From an uncultured delta proteobacterium (GTDB taxonomy: Bacteria; Myxococcota_A; Polyangia; Haliangiales; Haliangiaceae): a stretch of DNA of 64,000 nt. Every line of letters starts with the position of its first letter. Position 1 is the first letter of the stretch. Below are positions 1,654 to 14,704 of the stretch, in pieces. Where the stretch lies: NCBI GenBank assembly GCA_963848295.1, contig CAWKDB010000010.1, positions 3,488,001-3,552,000 of the forward strand. Direction: 5' to 3'. The notes below the pieces were generated by a model. The model saw only the letters and a list, made by a program, of their open reading frames with translations. It was not told where the DNA came from and did not search any database. A program made the translations under genes and the position numbers.

Positions 1654-4600
1654 GTGGCCGATGTGTCTCAGTTCGAGGAAGCTGCTGCTGCCGTCCGTCA
1701 CTCACCGCACGCGGTCAGCGCGTGGGAAGAGGTCGAGTCGCTCGCCTCTGATCTCGAGAAGCCCGACGAGATCGTCGTGCTCTACGGCGAAGCTCTCGCC
1801 GGTGCAGTCGAGCCGCAAGTCGCCGAGATGATCGGCGAGCGAGCCGGTAACTTCTGCGACGAGTGGTTCGGCGACGATCCGAAAGTCCTCGAGAAGATCT
1901 TGGCGCGCGTGCTCGAGCTCGCGCCGTCGTCGGATTCGGCGCTGCAGCGGCTCAGCGTGATCTACACGGTCGCGGAGCGCTGGGCCGACGTGCTCGCCCT
2001 GTTCGACCGCGCGATCGCCGCGACGAAGGAGCGCGGTCGCCGCACTCGGTTGTTGCGCGAAGCCGCGCAGCTCGCGAAGGACGTCGCGAATCAGCCGGAG
2101 CGAGCGATCGGCTACTACCAGCAACTGCTGCCGCTCGTTCCCGACGATGCGCAGCTCGGCCAGAGCCTCGAGCGCTTGCTCGAACGCCACGAACGCTGGG
2201 TCGACCTGATCCGCCTGTGGGAAGGGCGGATCGAGAGCCAGTCGAAGAAGGATCGCGAGAAGACGCGCGCGCGGATCGCGGCGTGCTGGCTCGACAACCT
2301 CAAAGATCCCCAGAACGCGCTCGCCGCGGTCAAGCCGTTGCTCGGCGAGGCCGAAGACGATCGCGAGAGCTGCTCGCTGCTCGAACGCATCGTCGAGGCG
2401 CCTCAGGCGACGAAGAGCGTGCGCGACGCGGCGTTGGATCTGTTGCGCTCGCATTACGACTCGACCGGCCGGCCGCGCGAGGTCATACGCGTGCTCGAGC
2501 GCGCGATCCAGCTCGACCCGACCGGCGCGCGCGAGCTGCGCGAAGAGGCCGGTCAGCGCCTCGCCGAGCTCGACGACTTGCCGGCGGCGATGGATCACTA
2601 CAGCGCGCTGCTCGCGATCGCCCCGGAGTCGTCGGTCACCGAGGAGAAGCTGCGCCAGCTCGCCGAGCGCGGCGGCCATCACGATCGCTACGCGGCAGGC
2701 GTCGCGGCCGCGGCGCGCACGAACGCCGGCATCGATCCGACGCGCAAGGTCGAGCTGCTCGGGGAAGCGGCGCGCACCCGGCTCGAGCGGATGTCGGACA
2801 TCGACGGCGCGGTCGCGCTGTTCGTCGAAGCCCAAGCGGTCAGCGGTGCCGCCGAGCACGAGCAGCTCGCGATCGCGCGCCGGCTCGCGGCGTTGTACGG
2901 CCAGCAAAACAAGCCGCAAGACCGACTCGCGGTGCTCGAGCGCCAGGCCCACCTCGAATCGAACGATGCGGCACGGTCGGCGATCCTCAGTGAAGCTGCG
3001 AAGCTCGCCGAATCGCTCGGCGACACCGATCGCGCGCTGACGTTGTGGGAGCGCCGTGTCGACAGCGATCCGAGCGATCTGTCGGCGCTCGATGCCCGGA
3101 TCGGCATCCTCGAGAATCAGAAGCGGTGGGACGATCTGGTCGCGGCGCTCGAGAGTCGTGCGAGCAAGGTCGCGTCGCCGAACCAGAAGCGCTCGGACCT
3201 CGTACGCGTCGCGCTCGTCCACGCCGAGCAGCGTCACGATCTCGATTCGGCGATCGGCGCATGGCAACGCGTCGTCACCGATCACAAAGATGACGAAGAG
3301 GGCATCTCCAAGCTCGCCGATCTGCTCGCCGAGACCGGCCGGTGGAAGGAGATGGCCGACCTGCTCGAAGGCGCTTCGGGCCGCGCGACCGCGCGCACGA
3401 TCGCGCGGTTGGTCCGCCTCGGCGATGCGTTGCGATCGCATCTCGACGAGCCGGCGCGCGCATTGACCGCGTATCGCAACGCCATCGCGATCGAGCCGGC
3501 GAGCAAAGAAGCTCGCGCCGGGCTCACCGCGTTGCTCGATCTGAAGCAGACGCGCGCGGCCGCCGCCGATGCGCTCGCGCAGGCGTTGCGAACGACCGGC
3601 GACGTCGCGGGCGTGCTCGATCTCCTGCCAGCGCGACTCGCCGAAGCCGCCGACGATCGCACCCGGCTCGCATTGTTGCGCGAGGCCGCTCAGCTCCGCC
3701 TCGAGCACAAGCACGATGCCCCCGGCGCGCTCGCGGATCTCGCGAAGGCCTTTCCGCTGGCGCCGCGCGATCAACTGATCGAGCACCAGATCATCTCGCT
3801 CGCCCAGTCGACCAACGATTGGCCGGCCGCCGCCGCCGCGTTCAAGGCCGCGATCGGAGCGCTGGGCGATGACACTCGCGAGGCCGCACGGCTGCGCCTC
3901 GCGTACGCCGATCTCGTCGCGGAGCGCCTCGACGACAACACGCGTGCGGCCGAGGCGTACGAGCAAGTCGCGGCGGTCGAGCCCGGCAATCGCCGCGCGG
4001 TCTACGCGTTCGCGCGACTCGGCGGCGCGCTCGGCGAATGGGAGAAGGCGGCGAACGTGGTCGTGCGCTACGCGATGATGCGCGAGGCATTCGACGACGA
4101 GCTGCTGTCGGTGCTCGAGCTCGCGGCCCAGGGCAACCGCGCGCACGATCTGCTCGCGCTCGCGCTCGGCGAATCGCTCGACAAGTTCAAGCTGCCGGCC
4201 GGCGTCGCCGCGTTGTTCCACCATCGGCTCGCGCTGATCCACCGCGATCATCGTCGCGACACCGCGGCCGCGATCGCATCGTTGCGCAAGGCGCTCGAGC
4301 AGGGCGGCGAACGCCTCGCGTGGTTGACCGATCTCGTCGCGCTCGAACGCGAGGTCGGCCAGACCCCGGCGCTGCTCGACGCGCTGCGCCGGCTCGCCGA
4401 CGCCGATGCGCGCGATCTCGATTCGCTCGTCGGCTCCGCGGACATCGCGAGCAAGCTCGGCGAGCGCGAGCAGGCGCTGCAGATCTTGTCCGCGGTGCTC
4501 GGCCGCGCGACGGCGGCGTGGCGCGGTACCGCGTCGATTCGCTCGGCTCGGTCGGTCGATTCGGTCGCGAAGTGGGCGATCGATGCGCTCGTCGAGCTGT

Positions 4601-7600
4601 ATCGCACCGGCGGTCGCGCGCGCGCTGCGGTCGACACCTTGGTCGAGGCGGCCCGGTTGCCGTTCGATGCGGGGACGCGCCGCGACATGCGCCTGCGCGC
4701 CGCGCAGATGGCGACGGTCGAGCTCGGCGACAACGCCGCGGCGATCGAGATGTATCGCAGCGTGCTCGCCGCGCAATCGAACGACCTCGAGGTGATCGAA
4801 CGACTCGCTCACTTGCTCGGGGTCGAAGACCGCGTGCCCGAGCTCTTGACCCTGCGCCAGATCCAGCTCGGGCTCGAGACCGATCTCGACAAGAAGCTCC
4901 AGCTCCGGCTCGAGCTCGCTCGCCTGGTCGGCATCGTCGAGGAGCGCGGCGGTCGGCTCGATGCGCTGCGCGCGAACCTCGAGGATCGGCCCGGTCACGA
5001 GGCGTCGATCGACGCGGTCGCCGAGCTGCTCGCGAACAAGGGCCAGCATCGCCAGCTCGCCGATCTGCTCGAGCAGCAAGCGCAGCGGCTCGAAGCGAAC
5101 GGCGAACCGGGGCGCGGCTCGAAGCTGTGGGCGCGCTACGCGCAAGTCACGGAGCAAGACACGAAAGAAGTCGAGCGCGCGATCGCCGGCCATCGCCGCG
5201 TCGTCGCGCTGTCGCCGACGCCCGAGTCGCTGCGCGCGCTCGCCCGGCTCAACCTCGACCGCGGACAGTCGGCGCAGGCGGTGCCGTGGCTCGAGAGCCT
5301 GCTCGGCACCGTGCCGCCGAACGAACGCTTGATCGTCGTGCACCAGCTCGCGAAGGCGCACTTGTCGGCGAACCAGACCGATCGCGCGATCGCGGCGATC
5401 GAGGTCAACCTCGACGACAAAGAGCCGGCGCTCGAGCTTCGCACGTTGCTCGCCGAGCTCTATCGCAAGGCCGATCAGTGGGAGCCGCTCGCTCGCCACC
5501 TGACGCGCAGCTTGCCGCTGATCAAGGACGAGCGACTCGCGCGCGACTTCGCTCGCGAAGCGGTGCAGCTGTACCTGACGCGGCTCGGCTCGCCCGCGAA
5601 AGCGATTCCGGCGCTCGAGACCGCGCTCGCGCTCGACCCGACCGACAAGGAGCTGCGGACCGCGCTCGCGGTCGGCCAACGCGTCGCCGGTAAGCTCGTC
5701 GAAGCACGCGCCGCCTTGGCCGAGCTGATCGCCGACTTCGGTCGCCGGCGCTCGCCGGAGCGCGCCGCCTTGCACGTCGAGCTCGCGCGCGTCGCTCAGG
5801 CCGAGGGCAAGACCGACGAGGCGATGGCCGAGCTCGAATCCGCGGCGAAGATGGACGCGTCGAACCCGGCGATCCAGAAGGAGCTCGCCGAGCTCGCCCG
5901 CTCGGTCGGTCAGCTCGACAAGGCCGAGCGCACGTATCGCGCGCTGCTGCTGGTCGTCCGGCGCACGCCGCCGGGCGACGACGAGAACGCGGTCGGTGCG
6001 AGCGAGGTGTTGTTCGAGCTCCACAAGCTGTCGGCGTCGCGCGGCGAGTCCGATCAGGCCAAGGAGCTGCTCGAGTCCGCGATGGAAGCGGCGATCCAAT
6101 CGGACGCCGAGGTCCGCCGGTTGCGCCGCAGCTTGCTCGCCCACAACGAAGGCGAGCTGTTGCTCAAGGTGCTCGGCAAGCGGCTCGATACGAACCCCGA
6201 CGTGCACAGCCAGGCGCGGTTGCTCAGCGACATGGCCGACGCGCTCGACGGGCTCGGCCGCGGCTCCGAGGCACTCGACGCGCTGATCAAGGCGTTCGGC
6301 GTGATGCCGTCGCGGCTCGACCTGCACGAGCGCGCCCGCGAGCTCGCGAAGAAGCTCGGCCAGACCAAGCGGTTCGTCGACGCGGTCGACACCGTCGTCG
6401 ATCGGCTGCGCCGCAAAGATGATCCGCCGCTGATCGCGAACCTCTTGATGCGCGCCGGCGATGCCCTCGAGAACGAAGGCGGCGACCTGCGCGGCGCGGC
6501 GAACCTGTATCGCCGCGTCGAGATCCTCGGCGAGAAGCTCGCGGAGGCGTTCTACGCGCAAGCGCGGATCGCCGCGGCGCTCGGCGACACCGCCGAGCAA
6601 GCGCGCACGCTCGACAAGATGTTCGAGCTCGCCGGGAGCGACGCCGAGCCGACCCCGGCTCAAGTCGACGCGTTGTATCGCCTGTCCGAGATCTTCATCG
6701 GCAGCGATTCGCGGCGCAAGCAAGGCGTCGAGCTGCTCGAGCGCGCGTTCGCTGCCGAGCCGCGGTGGGCGCAAGCCGGCCGGCTGCTCAAGGACGCCGC
6801 ATCTCGCGATGCGAGCGACGAGAAGATCCTCGCCATGTACGAGCGGGTCGCACGCAACGGCGGCGATCAGGAGCTGCTGCTCGACTTCCTCGAGCGCCGC
6901 GGGGCCTTGCCCGGTGCAACGCCGCAGCAGATCCGCGAAGCGGTGGATCTTGCGGTCGAGCTCGCACAAGACGCGCGGGCCGAAGCCTTGCTCGTTCGCG
7001 CCGTCGCTGCCGCGCGCGACACCGCCGATGGCATCGGCTCGGCACCGTGGGCGATGCTCGCGCTCGCCGAGCGTCGACTCGCGGCCGGCGATCTGACGCA
7101 GGCGCGCGACCTGGTCTACGAGATCGCGCCGATCGTCGAGCCCGAGCACGTCGATGGCCTCGCGATGCGGATCGCGACCCGCGCGCTCGCTCATCGCAAG
7201 ACCCAGCTCGCCGCCGACGTCTACGAGTTCTTGCGCGAGCGCAGCCCGGCCGAGCGCGCGGTGTGGCAACCGTTGCTCACGATCTATCGCGAGCTCGGCG
7301 ATGGCGATCGGCTCGGCAGCGTCGTGTCGTCGACCTTGCCGAACCTCGTCTCGCCGGCCGAGCGCAACGCGCTGCGCATCGAGCACGTCAAGTTCCTGAT
7401 CGAGAACCTCAAGCGCCATCACGACGCGCTCGACGTGTTGCGCGATGCGCTGCGCGACGACGCCGATAACCTCGAAGCCGCCGAGATGTACGAAGCGACG
7501 CTGCGCGAGCTCGGCGACGACGATGGCATCGCCGAATTTCTGTGGTCGCGATTTGAAGACGCGCAGCGCCGCGGCCACCGCGACTCGACCGTCGACGTCG

Positions 7601-9396
7601 CGCTGCGGCTCGGCACGTTGCTCGAGAAGCAGGGCTCGCCCGACATCGGACGCGTCTATCGCGCGGCGTTGATCATCGCGCCCGATGATCGCGAGATCCT
7701 GCGCCGCGTCGTCAGCCAGCTCGTCGAGCACGACAACCCGCGCGAGGGCGCGCTGTTGATGGAGCGCTTGCTCGCGGTCGAGACGCCGGACCAAGCACCC
7801 GCGCTCGCCGGTCGACTCGCGACGATGTGGGAAGCCGCCGGCGACGCGAAGGGCGTGCAGCGCACGCTCGAGCTCGCGCATCGCTCGGCGCCCGACGATC
7901 GCGCGATCCACGACCGGCTCGAGCAGTGGTATCGCGATCGCGAGCTGTGGTCCGAGCTCGCCGAGCTGATGACTCACGATGCCGAGAATCTCGACGATGC
8001 CTCGGCGGTCGTTCGCCTGCGCGAAGCGGCGAGCGTGTACTCCGGCTTCCTCGGTCAGCCGCTGAAGGCCGCGGAGGTGTTGCGCAAGGCGCGCGCTCGC
8101 GCACCGAACGTGCCCGAGCTCGTCACCGATCTCGCCGCGGCCCTCGCGGCGGCGGGCGAGCTCGACGCCGCCCAGCGCGCGATCGGCGAGGCACTCGGCA
8201 GCGTCACGGGTGCGGCGCGTGTCTCGCTACTCGTGCTGCGCGCGAGCTTCCGCCAGCAGCTCGGCGACGATGCGTCTGCGGTCACCGATCTCAGCGATGC
8301 GTATGACCTCGACAAGGAACGCGTCGCGGAGAGCTTGGTCGCTGGCCTCGATCGCCTGCGCAGCCGCGCCGAGCGCGACGGCGACATGCCGACCGAGCGC
8401 GTCGCGACGTTGAAGCTAGCGCAGCTCCTCGTCGCGCACGGCGAGCTCGAGCGCGGCCGAGGCTTCCTCGTCGCGTGGATCGAACGCGATGCGCGCGATG
8501 CCGAGCCGCTGTACATCCTGTGCGACCTCGACGAATCGATCGAGCACTGGGACGGCGTCGCAGCCGCCGCGATGCGGCTCGCCTACGTCACCGAAGGTGA
8601 AGCGCAGGTCGCAGCAGCCTTGCGGGCGACCGCCGCCTCCGCGAAGGCGGGGCGTCCGGGCGACGCGGTGCCGGTGCTCGAGGTCGTGTTCCAAGCCCAG
8701 CCCGGGGTCGACGTGTTGCGCGACAAGCTGCGCGAGACCTACGAAGCGGCGGGCGAGTTCAAGTTGCTCGCCGGCATCCTCGTCGCCGACGCCGATCACG
8801 GCAGCGATCCCGCCGCGCGCTACGCGAACTACAAGCGCGCCGCCGAGCTCCTGCTCTACCAGCTCGAAGATGCGGCCTCGGCGCAGGTCCCGGCGCAGCG
8901 CGCGCTCGAGCTCCAGCCCGACGACCACGCCGCGCTGATGCTCAACGTCGACGTGTTGATCGGTTCGGGTCAGGTCGAAGACGCCGGGCGCACGCTCGAA
9001 GCCGCGATCGCCGCGCAGAAGAAGCGCACGCCCGAGCTCGCGGTGCTGCAACAACGCATGGGCCGGGTCGCGGCGACGCTCGGCGACAAGGACGGCCAGC
9101 TCAACTGGTTGAAGAAAGCGTTCGATGTCGATCGCAAGAACGCCGAAGTCGCGGCCGAGCTCGCACAGCTCGCGACCGAGATCGGCGACTACGAGCTCGC
9201 CCTCAAGCCGCTGCGGGCGATCACGCTGATGGACAACCCCGCGCCGGTCACGCGGCCGATGGCGCTGTTGTGGGAAGCGAAGATCGAGCACGCGCGCGGC
9301 AATCGCGCGAAGGCCGAGCTGTGGGCGAAGAAGGCGCTGCGCGAAGATCCGGGCTTCGCGGACGCGCAGCAGTTCCTCGACGAGCTCGGTGGCTAG
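1654..9396 (+). CDS. Giant tetratricopeptide-repeat protein (2580 aa), AgmK-like myxobacterial TPR scaffold
   Basis: Continuous helical repeats such as AIGYYQQLLPLVPDD, ALTAYRNAIAIEPAS and ALETALALDPTD. No signal peptide. Confidence 0.8.
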   Translation: MADVSQFEEAAAAVRHSPHAVSAWEEVESLASDLEKPDEIVVLYGEALAGAVEPQVAEMIGERAGNFCDEWFGDDPKVLEKILARVLELAPSSDSALQRLSVIYTVAERWADVLALFDRAIAATKERGRRTRLLREAAQLAKDVANQPERAIGYYQQLLPLVPDDAQLGQSLERLLERHERWVDLIRLWEGRIESQSKKDREKTRARIAACWLDNLKDPQNALAAVKPLLGEAEDDRESCSLLERIVEAPQATKSVRDAALDLLRSHYDSTGRPREVIRVLERAIQLDPTGARELREEAGQRLAELDDLPAAMDHYSALLAIAPESSVTEEKLRQLAERGGHHDRYAAGVAAAARTNAGIDPTRKVELLGEAARTRLERMSDIDGAVALFVEAQAVSGAAEHEQLAIARRLAALYGQQNKPQDRLAVLERQAHLESNDAARSAILSEAAKLAESLGDTDRALTLWERRVDSDPSDLSALDARIGILENQKRWDDLVAALESRASKVASPNQKRSDLVRVALVHAEQRHDLDSAIGAWQRVVTDHKDDEEGISKLADLLAETGRWKEMADLLEGASGRATARTIARLVRLGDALRSHLDEPARALTAYRNAIAIEPASKEARAGLTALLDLKQTRAAAADALAQALRTTGDVAGVLDLLPARLAEAADDRTRLALLREAAQLRLEHKHDAPGALADLAKAFPLAPRDQLIEHQIISLAQSTNDWPAAAAAFKAAIGALGDDTREAARLRLAYADLVAERLDDNTRAAEAYEQVAAVEPGNRRAVYAFARLGGALGEWEKAANVVVRYAMMREAFDDELLSVLELAAQGNRAHDLLALALGESLDKFKLPAGVAALFHHRLALIHRDHRRDTAAAIASLRKALEQGGERLAWLTDLVALEREVGQTPALLDALRRLADADARDLDSLVGSADIASKLGEREQALQILSAVLGRATAAWRGTASIRSARSVDSVAKWAIDALVELYRTGGRARAAVDTLVEAARLPFDAGTRRDMRLRAAQMATVELGDNAAAIEMYRSVLAAQSNDLEVIERLAHLLGVEDRVPELLTLRQIQLGLETDLDKKLQLRLELARLVGIVEERGGRLDALRANLEDRPGHEASIDAVAELLANKGQHRQLADLLEQQAQRLEANGEPGRGSKLWARYAQVTEQDTKEVERAIAGHRRVVALSPTPESLRALARLNLDRGQSAQAVPWLESLLGTVPPNERLIVVHQLAKAHLSANQTDRAIAAIEVNLDDKEPALELRTLLAELYRKADQWEPLARHLTRSLPLIKDERLARDFAREAVQLYLTRLGSPAKAIPALETALALDPTDKELRTALAVGQRVAGKLVEARAALAELIADFGRRRSPERAALHVELARVAQAEGKTDEAMAELESAAKMDASNPAIQKELAELARSVGQLDKAERTYRALLLVVRRTPPGDDENAVGASEVLFELHKLSASRGESDQAKELLESAMEAAIQSDAEVRRLRRSLLAHNEGELLLKVLGKRLDTNPDVHSQARLLSDMADALDGLGRGSEALDALIKAFGVMPSRLDLHERARELAKKLGQTKRFVDAVDTVVDRLRRKDDPPLIANLLMRAGDALENEGGDLRGAANLYRRVEILGEKLAEAFYAQARIAAALGDTAEQARTLDKMFELAGSDAEPTPAQVDALYRLSEIFIGSDSRRKQGVELLERAFAAEPRWAQAGRLLKDAASRDASDEKILAMYERVARNGGDQELLLDFLERRGALPGATPQQIREAVDLAVELAQDARAEALLVRAVAAARDTADGIGSAPWAMLALAERRLAAGDLTQARDLVYEIAPIVEPEHVDGLAMRIATRALAHRKTQLAADVYEFLRERSPAERAVWQPLLTIYRELGDGDRLGSVVSSTLPNLVSPAERNALRIEHVKFLIENLKRHHDALDVLRDALRDDADNLEAAEMYEATLRELGDDDGIAEFLWSRFEDAQRRGHRDSTVDVALRLGTLLEKQGSPDIGRVYRAALIIAPDDREILRRVVSQLVEHDNPREGALLMERLLAVETPDQAPALAGRLATMWEAAGDAKGVQRTLELAHRSAPDDRAIHDRLEQWYRDRELWSELAELMTHDAENLDDASAVVRLREAASVYSGFLGQPLKAAEVLRKARARAPNVPELVTDLAAALAAAGELDAAQRAIGEALGSVTGAARVSLLVLRASFRQQLGDDASAVTDLSDAYDLDKERVAESLVAGLDRLRSRAERDGDMPTERVATLKLAQLLVAHGELERGRGFLVAWIERDARDAEPLYILCDLDESIEHWDGVAAAAMRLAYVTEGEAQVAAALRATAASAKAGRPGDAVPVLEVVFQAQPGVDVLRDKLRETYEAAGEFKLLAGILVADADHGSDPAARYANYKRAAELLLYQLEDAASAQVPAQRALELQPDDHAALMLNVDVLIGSGQVEDAGRTLEAAIAAQKKRTPELAVLQQRMGRVAATLGDKDGQLNWLKKAFDVDRKNAEVAAELAQLATEIGDYELALKPLRAITLMDNPAPVTRPMALLWEAKIEHARGNRAKAELWAKKALREDPGFADAQQFLDELGG

Positions 9397-9405
9397 CCCA
9401 CGGCG

Positions 9406-11385
<1,980 letters not shown>

Positions 11386-11393
11386 GCCGGGGG

Positions 11394-11420
11394 TTATCGA
11401 CCGCAGGCGCGCTCGGTTGC
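11394..11420 (-). promoter_or_regulatory. Shared module promoter, copy 1 (GCAACC-N13-GTCGATAA)
   Basis: Lies 8 nt upstream of the ATPase ATG and has the same spacing as the copies at 14180-14206 and 14221-14247. Confidence 0.65.
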
Positions 11421-12519
11421 CCGGGCGGCGTGTAGCCGGGCTCGCGGAACGGAACTTCGCAGAACAGCTGCCCTTTCGGCGGCGCCGGCGGGCGCACCAC
11501 CGCCGGCGGCGGTGGCCCGGGGAGGCTGCGGACGCAGCGGAAGCCGGCGAGTACGCCGGTATCGATCGACTGCCACCCATGGCCCCGGCCTGTGATCCCG
11601 GGCGCGGCGTCACCACCCTTCGTCGCACGCCACGGGCGCTCTACCCCTGGCTCTTGGTCATCCGGGATCACAGGCGGGTCGCGCTGGACCGGATCGATCA
11701 CCGACGGGTTGTCGCGGCAACCCCGGATCGAGGACCAGTCGAGCTCGATCACCGGCTCGGGTGCGCGGCGCCTTGTAAATCGCGGGACGCCCTCGATTCG
11801 CGGGAAATTCAGCCAGTCGCTGATCCACTCCGGCGCGCTATAGGACAGGTCCAGAACGCCGTAGGGGCTCGCGCCGGCGGGATGCGCTCCGACATCGAGG
11901 ATGAGCGGCTCGTCGATGCCACATCGGAGCGAGCCGTCGTGGCTCCAGTCCATCGAGCTCAACGTCGTCGTCCGGTCGCACGTCGGTCGCGCATCGCCCC
12001 ACGGATAGATTCGATCGTCGGTGCCGCGCGCGGCCTTCTCCCACTCGGCTTCGCTAGGCAGCCGCTTGCCGACCCAGTTGCAGTACGCGGTGGCATCCTC
12101 GAAGTGGACCTGCGCCGGGAGATTTAGTTCCGCGTCTGGCGCGAAGTCTTCGAGCTGCAGCGACTCGCCGATCGATCGGCCCTTGCAGGCGCCCGCGGCG
12201 TGGCATCGCCCGAACGCGCGCCGTGACACCTCGACGCGATCGATCTCGAGGTGCGAGATCCACAAGCGTCGCGGTGGATCGGCTTCCACGCATTCCGAGA
12301 TCTCCGCCGATTCCATCTCGTGTTGTCGACGGTCGTCGCGCCCGTAGAAGTAGCTGGACACCCGTGCGCGGTAGCAGCCGGCGGAGAACCACGATGCCGG
12401 GACGTCGACCATGTCGTCCGGGATCGGCGTCGTCGGCGTCGGCGGCGGCTCGGGCGGGCTCGCCGGGCCCGAGCATGCGGTGATCGCGCACGCCAGGGTC
12501 GCAGACCGCAGCGTGCGGA

Positions 12520-14172
12520 TCACTGGTTCACCGTCCCACGCGGCGTCTCGTCGTCGGTGGCGATCGCGACGCGCGCCTCGCGCAGGGTGGTCGCGAGGAC
12601 CTGGTCGATCATCGCGGTCGCGCCGGCGATCGAATCGAGCGAGCCGTCGCGGATCGCGTCGGGGGCGTAGCTCGCGAGCGCGGACAGGTCGCCGTCGACG
12701 TGCACGCGCCCGGCCTCGTCGCGGGTCACGATCGTCGGCTCGCTGTCGTAGGCGCCGAGCACGAACCGCATCGGGATCCGCAGCTCCGACAGCCGCGTGG
12801 CCCGCACGCGATCGACGATCGCGTACGACACGCCGTGCAGCGCGGCCGACACGATCTGTGCCGGCGCCACGGCCGACGCGAGCCGGAGCTCGAGCACGCC
12901 GTCGGCCGGCCTCGGTGCGCCGGCGTGGCGGTCGGCGAGCAGCGGTCCCATCTGGGTCGCGCGCTGCTCGGCGCCGGTCGTGTCGGCGACCTGCTCGCTG
13001 CCATTGACCGCGCGCGCGACGTACGCGACCCAGCTCGCCGTGGTCGCGGTGGCTTGGTGCTCTCTCGCCTGGTGGTTGCAATCTACGAGAGCCGCCGTCA
13101 CTTTTTCGAGCGAGGACTTCGCGCGCTTCGGATCGGCGCGATGCAACGGCCGCAGGTTCTTGATCACGTCGATCATATAGGTGCCGTTGGCCTCCTTCTG
13201 CTTCTCCAGCACGTCCTTCTGCGCGAGGAAGAAGTCGATGCGTGGATTGGTCGAGTAGCCCATGCCGGGATCGCGCTCGGCTTGGCCACCGGCCGGGCTC
13301 GGCGTCGCGCTCGGGGCGATCGCCTCGAGCGCGCTCTTGCCCGCCAGCTTGAGCCCTTGCTTGATCGCGGCGCCGAGCACTTTCTCGACCTCGAACGCGA
13401 AGACAACCTCCTCGGCCACTGCAGCGGTCGCGATCGTGAGCGCGGCCTCGGCGAGGTCCCACCACGGCGGCGTGCCGGTCTTGGCGACCCGCTTCTTGTA
13501 CACCGATGCATCGCGGTCGACCGCGTCGCAACCCGCAGCCTGCGCCTCCGCAAGTTCAGTCGCGGCCTTCGTGGCTTTGAGCGCGGCGCGGTCGAACTCC
13601 TTGTCCACCTCGCCCGGTAGGCGGTCATCCGCCTCGACCGCGAGCTCGGCCTGGACCGCCTGGTCCCAGCTCTGCGCCAGGCGGCGCGGCTCGGCTACGA
13701 GCGCGGCCTCGTCGACCGGCCCGCGCGGCACCTGATCGAGCGTGCGGGCACGGCCACGCAGCGCCGTCGTCTTCGTCTCGATCATACCGTCGCTCCAGAC
13801 CACCACCCACGACAGCGTACCCTCGTGGTGCCCCGGCGTGGTGGGCGCGTAGACGATCGTCGGGGATGCCTGCTCGGCCGCGGCCGCTCCCGACGCCCAA
13901 TCGGCCGACGACGGCAACGCGATCTCGGCCGGCGCTTCCAGCCTGAAGTCGGCGCCGTCGATCGTGCAGCACACGATCGCGGCCACGTCGCGCTGGTTGA
14001 AGGGGACGTGGATCTGGGCGGTTCGGCCGCCGCCGACGAGGTGCTCGCCGAAATCGTAGATCGGAACCGCGATGGCGTGCGGCGCGGGCAGGCTCGCCTC
14101 CGGCTCGCGTGGCCTGGCGGCGTGGACCTGCGGGTGCGCGGCCTGCTTCGAATCGTAAGAGGGATCGCCCAT
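12520..14172 (-). CDS. Hypothetical 550-aa protein: low-complexity leader, ASH/Ig-like domain, helical region with hydrophobic segment; candidate effector
   Basis: YDFG...YAPTTPGHHEGTL...LRG resembles ASH/choice-of-anchor Ig folds. WWDLAEAALTIATAAVAEEVV is a hydrophobic helix. No signal peptide. Translationally coupled to the FGE gene. Confidence 0.65.
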   Translation of the reverse strand: MGDPSYDSKQAAHPQVHAARPREPEASLPAPHAIAVPIYDFGEHLVGGGRTAQIHVPFNQRDVAAIVCCTIDGADFRLEAPAEIALPSSADWASGAAAAEQASPTIVYAPTTPGHHEGTLSWVVVWSDGMIETKTTALRGRARTLDQVPRGPVDEAALVAEPRRLAQSWDQAVQAELAVEADDRLPGEVDKEFDRAALKATKAATELAEAQAAGCDAVDRDASVYKKRVAKTGTPPWWDLAEAALTIATAAVAEEVVFAFEVEKVLGAAIKQGLKLAGKSALEAIAPSATPSPAGGQAERDPGMGYSTNPRIDFFLAQKDVLEKQKEANGTYMIDVIKNLRPLHRADPKRAKSSLEKVTAALVDCNHQAREHQATATTASWVAYVARAVNGSEQVADTTGAEQRATQMGPLLADRHAGAPRPADGVLELRLASAVAPAQIVSAALHGVSYAIVDRVRATRLSELRIPMRFVLGAYDSEPTIVTRDEAGRVHVDGDLSALASYAPDAIRDGSLDSIAGATAMIDQVLATTLREARVAIATDDETPRGTVNQ

Positions 14173-14179
14173 GGGCCCG

Positions 14180-14206
14180 CTATCGGCCGAGCCGGCGCTC
14201 GGTTGC
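14180..14206 (-). promoter_or_regulatory. Shared module promoter, copy 2 (GCAACC-N13-GCCGATAG)
   Basis: Lies 7 nt upstream of ATG 14172. Confidence 0.7.
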
Positions 14207-14220
14207 GCGGAAAAGACCAA

Positions 14221-14247
14221 GCAACCGCCGGTGCGAGGTGCCGATAG
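14221..14247 (+). promoter_or_regulatory. Shared module promoter, copy 3 (GCAACC-N13-GCCGATAG)
   Basis: Lies 7 nt upstream of ATG 14255 and is divergent from copy 2. Confidence 0.7.
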
Positions 14248-14254
14248 CGAGCGC

Positions 14255-14704
14255 ATGACCGCAACCACCGCCCTGAACAGCATACCGTTAGTCCTGGGAA
14301 CCTCGACCATGCCGACCGCCGCGCCCCGGCTCGAGGTCGTTCCTAGGACCGGTCCGCCGCCGCTCTGGCAGCCCGGGTCTCGATCGGACACACCGACCAC
14401 GGACGCCATCCGCGAACGCGCGCGAGGCGAGCAGGCCGCGGGTCGGCTGGACGGCGCGATCATCGCGGTGCTGACCCGCCCGTTGCGGCCCGACGAGGGC
14501 CATCGCGTGGGCAACGACAACCGAGAGCGCGAGCTGGTCCGACTGCTCGCCGCGCTCACGCCGGTCGAGACGTACCACCTGCGTCGGCGGCTGGATGCCG
14601 ACCGGGCTGACGATGCGGTCGTCGTCGCGTTCCGCCGCTTGCTCGGCGAGCGGCGGCAGCGGGTGCGCGCGTTCCTCTCCGATCCCAGGCGGCGGTGCGC
14701 GTGA
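14255..14704 (+). CDS. Small helical hypothetical protein (149 aa)
   Basis: Plausible globular helical C-terminal half (RERELVRLLAAL...AFRRLLGERRQRVRAFLSDPRRR). Start is supported by the promoter motif. Confidence 0.6.
   Translation: MTATTALNSIPLVLGTSTMPTAAPRLEVVPRTGPPPLWQPGSRSDTPTTDAIRERARGEQAAGRLDGAIIAVLTRPLRPDEGHRVGNDNRERELVRLLAALTPVETYHLRRRLDADRADDAVVVAFRRLLGERRQRVRAFLSDPRRRCA

Follow-up and report, generated by a model that had tools for sequence, protein, structure and literature searches.

In ComX/SigX-type competence regulons killing genes are co-induced, and in Vibrio the TfoX regulon couples competence to T6SS killing. ComX/SigX of streptococci and SigH of Staphylococcus and Lactobacillus are cases in which one alternative sigma factor heads the genes for DNA uptake (PMC12378983), and the Sxy/CRP-S (TfoX) system of gamma-proteobacteria brings competence genes and a RAYT together in one regulon, with yafM, a RAYT gene of E. 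coli, being reported as upregulated on competence induction (PMC5581495). As to promoter structure, the closest described system is that of FliA, i.e. sigma28, of E. coli and P. aeruginosa (PDB 6pmi, 9wsm); the fliC promoter of P. aeruginosa consists of (-36)TCTAAAG(-30) and (-15)GCCGATAA(-8), with +1 located 7 nt after the -10 box (PMC12784957). A sigma28-family factor in a non-flagellar role is exemplified by the WhiG clade of Actinomycetota, which serves sporulation and, in Rubrobacter, type IV pili and has the consensus XT(C/A)AX-N16-GCCGA; comEC is not mentioned in the main text of that paper (PMC13595943).

Here, we analysed a 64,000-nt stretch of DNA from an uncultured delta proteobacterium (GenBank GCA_963848295.1, contig CAWKDB010000010.1, positions 3,488,001 to 3,552,000; 'the window'), for which a first-pass annotation had described three copies of a promoter motif with identical 13-nt spacing, each 7-8 nt upstream of an ATG that has no Shine-Dalgarno sequence. 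These copies are real rather than chance occurrences: GCAACC-N13-GYCGATAR is present exactly three times, whereas 100 shuffled windows contain 0.01 copies on average and at most 1. Promoter-like site 1 (GCAACC-N13-GTCGATAA; 11394..11420, minus strand) is found 8 nt 5' of the ATG of an AAA ATPase gene (11385), site 2 (GCAACC-N13-GCCGATAG; 14180..14206, minus strand) 7 nt 5' of the ATG of a gene for a 550-aa protein (14172), and site 3 (again GCAACC-N13-GCCGATAG; 14221..14247, plus strand) 7 nt 5' of the ATG of a 149-aa gene (14255). Sites 2 and 3 are divergent, with 14 nt between their -35 boxes, and site 1 is indeed embedded, as had been noted, in the 3' end of an FGE-sulfatase ORF (11342-12523), where it falls within the final ~26 codons. 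None of the three site-to-ATG gaps in the window contains a Shine-Dalgarno word; a single GAGG is located between the two boxes of site 3, 5' of its -10 element, and would thus remain untranscribed if transcription starts at the ATG.

The genes around these sites encode a 659-aa ATPase with WHD (PF22977) and AAA (PF00004) domains, which is one of eight paralogues in the genome (9406..11385, minus strand), a 393-aa protein with an FGE-sulfatase domain and a lipoprotein-like N-terminus (11342..12523, minus strand), whose gene start runs into the stop of the 550-aa gene, the 550-aa protein itself, a putative effector (12520..14172, minus strand), and a 149-aa protein (14255..14704, plus strand) with a helical domain common to other motif-headed genes, including one for an eCIS_core protein of genome G006. 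The 550-aa protein combines a PapD/ASH-like Ig domain (approximately residues 30-145) with long helices and an alpha/beta C-terminus. A full HMMER search yielded 188 relatives, with eCIS_core being fused to 2 of the 15 scanned, and a word-based search returned just the protein itself. In fold searches with its model (pLDDT 88), which mostly covered the Ig domain, that domain was the only part matched (with a Z of 12.3 and an rmsd of 2.2 for 103 residues), the C-terminal domain being unmatched. PADLOC matched none of ten proteins. DUF4157 is a domain that has been discussed as effector-associated (PMC11495950). We infer that the 550-aa protein may be an effector, with the overlapping FGE lipoprotein providing immunity and the ATPase acting as a loader. 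The window also encodes a 2580-aa TPR-rich protein (1654-9396, plus strand), located 3' of a TonB-dependent receptor fragment and converging on the AAA gene.

The motif extends far beyond the window. In the source genome (7.8 Mb, 85% complete, with genes predicted by a simple caller written for this analysis), the exact pattern has seven copies, all of which are followed by an ATG 7-8 nt downstream, and the exact boxes at spacers of 9-12 and 14-19 nt occur 0-2 times each. The shorter pattern CAAC-N14-GYCGATAN has 25 genomic copies, with 21 of them positioned 7-8 nt before an ATG. When GYCGATAN boxes 7-8 nt 5' of an ATG are taken as the starting point, 21 of 56 have CAAC 14 nt upstream, as compared with 0/26, 0/21, 0/27, 0/30 and 3/38 at five other distances. 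When 63 sites of relatives, which had been chosen with the pattern from the source genome, are used to train a matrix, it detects 17 ATG ORFs of at least 60 aa at scores of at least 19 with the native spacer, two with the spacer shifted by +1 and zero for shifts of -1, +/-3 or +/-4. The site consensus is aCGCAACy-N13-GyCGATAs-N7/8-ATG; three sites in the source genome are leadered, two of them with GGAGG.

In matrices from both the source genome and its relatives, the -10 octamer is GYCGATA(C/G/A), i.e. the GCCGATAA-type octamer with an extended GC, in agreement with the sigma28-type -10 box proposed before. With +1 of fliC lying 7 nt past the -10 box, the ATGs of the motif-headed genes occupy the very place of a sigma28 start site, from which leaderless messages are predicted, and the earlier suggestion of an alternative-sigma promoter with leaderless geometry finds support. 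The -35 region differs: it is CGCAAC rather than the CTAAAG of FliA promoters, and it does not match TAAAG or the WhiG-type XT(C/A)AX with a 16-nt spacer to GCCGA, since the spacer is mostly 15 nt and G replaces T at the -35 T position, as seen in 62 of the 63 training sites, a count partly forced by the selection pattern. The targets are non-flagellar here. We regard it as very probable that the motif, a promoter-shaped sequence found genome-wide, is a promoter of the sigma28 type.

Which sigma factor would read it? Four FliA-like genes are present in the source genome: one belongs to the flagellar cluster, two flagellar-type duplicates (C10:3339203 and C10:3436617) lie outside that cluster and group with the first, and the fourth, at C10:64110-64778, is an orphan. 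In addition, a sigma70-family gene at C10:1166389-1167082, possibly frameshifted, matches TIGR02479 in two reading frames. The orphan is a single-copy paralogue outside the flagellar cluster with FliA/WhiG as its best family match (117 bits for TIGR02479 against a cut-off of 189.6). Matches with 53-70% identity are present in 17 of 17 genomes of the genus (split in G017) and with 39-46% identity in seven genomes of the order; close relatives of the protein are labelled Kofleriaceae or Myxococcota, and a scan of named genomes with one divergent protein as the query gave eight loci of little value. In a quick tree, the orphan clade (48 rows) is separated from 25 flagellar-type rows with 97% SH-aLRT. 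Databases label its proteins as 'FliA for flagellar operon', yet the clade occurs in genomes in which flagellin was not detected. That the orphan is the flagellar FliA proper can be rejected, as it scores below the TIGR02479 cut-off, does not have the S-R-V-x-Q helix, maps to an orphan locus and falls into a separate clade. It does retain the equivalents of R80, D87 and R97, which make the base contacts to the -10 and extended -10 elements in FliA (numbering transferred by alignment to 9wsm), and its -35 helix reads S-K-S-W-A-S-R versus S-E-S-R-V-S-Q, with the changes Q228R, E223K and R225W affecting, at Q228, a base-specific -35 contact. There is no sign of autoregulation: none of 25 orthologous sigma genes is preceded by a site above 8.1, and most of them have a TAnnnT box a few nucleotides before their GTG or ATG start. 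It is likely that this orphan paralogue reads the motif.

In the source genome, the sites head the genes for ComEC (TIGR00361 above cut-off) and ComF (DZR_2 plus PRTase; TIGR00201 below cut-off), both of the two RAYT-like transposases found (NF047646 below cut-off), eight copies of a four-helix-bundle gene, seven of them near-identical, an orphan CIS_tube gene, the gene of a lamin-tail protein as well as lipoproteins and unknowns; most sites precede genes of unknown function. The four-helix-bundle (23S_rRNA_IVP) cassette is located at C10:3467569 and seven other loci, with several copies truncated or frameshifted, and is tied to the motif in G011 and G141 too. At C10:553155-557935, a motif-headed, frameshift-broken paralogue of a 904-aa protein adjoins an IS-like gene pair. 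Genes for recA, ssb, radC, comM, recQ and three pilins of the source genome do not have a site.

Used as a genome-wide finder, the motif did uncover further AAA/effector modules, with a second AAA+WHD gene being headed alongside a paralogue of the 550-aa gene and a third AAA module sitting two genes downstream of a site. The first-pass annotation had regarded the promoter as dedicated to the window module. The link itself holds, with 14 of 26 loci of close AAA+WHD homologues in relatives having a site of at least 15 within 1.5 kb (control 0/26), eight of them directly on the ATPase start, but 'dedicated' does not, as the conserved core is comEC and comF. Likewise, the scan it had proposed for eCIS, DUF4157 and AAA genes led to the orphan CIS_tube gene and the other AAA/effector modules, but not to the sheath/tube head of the eCIS operon (C2:900-934 kb), to any of the three eCIS_core (DUF4157) genes or to five of the eight AAA+WHD paralogues, all of which are without a site in the source genome. 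This operon (C2:900084-933515, minus strand) comprises two sheath genes, CIS_tube and eCIS_core; a 220-aa gene that is interspersed with its distal genes and runs on the opposite strand is motif-headed.

Conservation was assessed by counting sites with the end of the -10 box 6-9 nt before an in-frame start, with the source genome and G010 left out, with shifted-spacer controls and in genomes that are kin rather than independent. At comEC, a site of at least 15 is present in 15 of 16 genomes of the genus (control 0) and of at least 5 in 7 of 12 from other families (control 0; one locus with 40 nt upstream), and no in-frame site of at least 10 was seen in 20 genomes of the same class outside the order. 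At comF, the corresponding figures are 13 of 15 in the genus (at least 15; control 1), 8 of 10 in other families (at least 10; control 0) and, at the low threshold of at least 5, 17 of 20 in the same class (control 2); in other classes, one of nine genomes has a site and three more have leadered sites of 11-14. A comEC match was missing from G001 and G013 and a comF match from G001 and G026; the cut comF loci of G015 and G021 were dropped. The predicted comF site is thus found in dozens of related myxobacteria, the predicted comEC site within this order only. The dprA gene has a nearby site in one of 28 loci (G030) and a leaderless site in G156, and the main, signal-peptide-bearing comEA none in 24 loci; a membrane-anchored HHH_3 (ComEA-like) gene is preceded by leaderless sites scoring 16-22 in G025, G026, G027 and G028 (20 loci examined) and also has a site in G087. 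Sites at the class level precede dprA, an HHH_3 gene, recQ and a RAYT. With dprA, comEA, recA, comM and pilin genes mostly lacking a site, the set falls short of a complete competence regulon of the classical kind. The likeness to ComX/SigX and SigH lies in a single alternative sigma factor heading DNA-uptake genes, whereas sigma family, phylum and box differ and dprA, recA, ssb and comEA stay mostly outside the regulon; Sxy/CRP-S in turn shares the pairing of competence genes with a RAYT, but operates through an activator site with sigma70, in contrast to the sigma-specific core promoter predicted here.

The strict pattern, in a draw of 131 genomes, has 26, 14 and 15 copies in three members of the order and 0-4 elsewhere. 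In G011, G006, G014, G141 and G019 it heads comEC, comF, RAYT-like, four-helix-bundle, CIS_tube, eCIS_core and lipoprotein genes; the sites examined number 30 of 62 in G011 and 30 of 46 across the next three genomes. A 106-aa gene (C2:805524-805844 in the source genome) has a site of at least 18 in 15 of 16 genus genomes, source included, and apparently a sigma70-type box as well; its product might act in feedback or as an anti-sigma factor. Likeness to FlgM found no support (hhalign probability 0.2 against the source-genome FlgM, 0 of 19 members with a FlgM Pfam match, Atlas matches unnamed). Leaderless sites upstream of an FHA-domain sigma54 activator gene in four class-level genomes (G082, G156, G076, G058) suggest a second regulatory layer. 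In G019, the genes preceded by the sites at C340:8646 and C207:6226 are a solitary YscI-like one and a FliK-like one with a FliMN_C gene after it, i.e. dispersed type III secretion parts located outside a cluster. Other classes have a CTCAACC-N14-GCCGATA version 5' of PilZ genes that fits the WhiG consensus, and a similar T-type site 5' of an FHIPEP (flhA-like) gene; in G154, an other-class genome with a T-type site, the best sigma match is flagellar-type.

The distribution of sites and sigma factors across genomes bears on who reads the motif. G022 (1.6 Mb, 98% complete) has three sigma70 region-2 matches, i.e. RpoD, RpoH and the orphan-type sigma, with no ECF sigma among them; flagellin was not found in it, and its strict-pattern sites are exactly two, at comEC and comF. 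G003 and G004 similarly have sites, no flagellin was found in them, and the orphan is their only FliA-like factor. In G020 (96% complete), which has weak sites, the orphan-type sigma was not found, nor was it in G027 (71% complete), and in G034 the sigma clade is present with comEC and comF being without a site. Recognition by the flagellar FliA, or by either of the two duplicates specific to its lineage, would be in line with the FliA-type -10 box, with the additional copies over or near the TIGR02479 cut-off in the source genome and with a second, partial FliA-like gene besides the orphan in G016, but is very improbable given the three genomes where the orphan is the sole FliA-like factor and given a flagellar cluster (C10:3345000-3392000) that has no site, including flagellin, flgM and other late genes. 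A classical TAAA/TCAAG promoter was not found for the source-genome flagellin either. AAC does resemble ECF -35 boxes, as had been pointed out for this motif, and with 56 sigma70 region-2 matches in the source genome and RpoH in G022 there are candidates for an ECF- or RpoH-type reader; yet G022 has sites and no ECF factor was found in it, none of 18 pattern-matched heat-shock candidates in the source genome scores above 7.9, and the -10 element is the sigma28 octamer, so that we consider this highly unlikely and an altered sigma28 -35 element the better fit.

A DNA-binding regulator could also have its operator overlapping a housekeeping promoter. Leaderless sigma70-type boxes are common in the source genome (TANNNT 6-8 nt 5' of 565 of 4299 predicted ATG starts), and the 106-aa gene apparently has both kinds of promoter. 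Such an operator is extremely improbable, however: the motif consists of two asymmetric boxes that lack symmetry and keep both their spacer and their distance to +1 constant, and it matches the sigma28 -10 element. Less readily dismissed, though still unlikely, is a different role for the same sigma factor and promoter, namely a broad starvation or social-attack programme, of which comEC and comF would be just the most conserved members, with DNA being taken up as food and no competence switch involved. Targets in the source genome (G000), G011, G006 and G141 are mostly lipoproteins, effector-like proteins and unknowns, dprA, comEA, recA and comM mostly go without a site, and the type III-like genes of G019 and the FHA-sigma54 activators would have a place in such a programme; on the other hand, the smallest strict-pattern set, that of G022, is precisely comEC plus comF, and further transformation genes recur at the class level.

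Overall, we favour, with reasonable confidence, an orphan sigma28-type regulon that produces leaderless messages and has a DNA-uptake core of comF and comEC, a reading that builds on the fixed position and spacing of the sites, their conservation, the genes they head and the clade and residues of the sigma factor. The orphan paralogue would read the GC-CGA -10 box with its retained sigma28 residues and CGCAAC, as an altered sigma28 -35 element, with its altered region-4.2 helix, and would initiate at the ATG. A single induction could then drive ssDNA import through ComEC, ComF and, in other families, the membrane-anchored ComEA-like protein, such that expressing the DNA-import steps at the inner membrane would be the core job of the orphan. 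In the source genus, putative effector modules (the AAA+WHD ATPase, eCIS_core-related proteins, the orphan tube gene) may have joined the regulon, which would suit the killing of neighbours for their DNA, and the RAYT-like and four-helix-bundle genes, as putative selfish elements, would carry the same promoter. It is about an even bet that, more generally, this phylum-wide FliA paralogue is the myxobacterial competence sigma factor, that in Kofleriaceae it arms kill-for-DNA modules, and that selfish elements have captured its promoter in order to act when foreign DNA enters.

In the main text of the open full-text literature covered, neither this promoter nor this sigma clade was seen to be described, with nothing on either in passages of PMC12288465, PMC12378983 and bioRxiv 2021.11.28.470282; nor was a named competence regulator for Myxococcota found in the full-text literature covered. 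If our reading is true, one gene and one motif would make competence in abundant soil predators testable, and myxobacteria that are difficult to handle might become transformable. DNA uptake would also join the roles of the sigma28 family, nature would offer an example in which a -35 helix and a -35 box have changed in concert, and the motif could be used to search for orphan effector modules.
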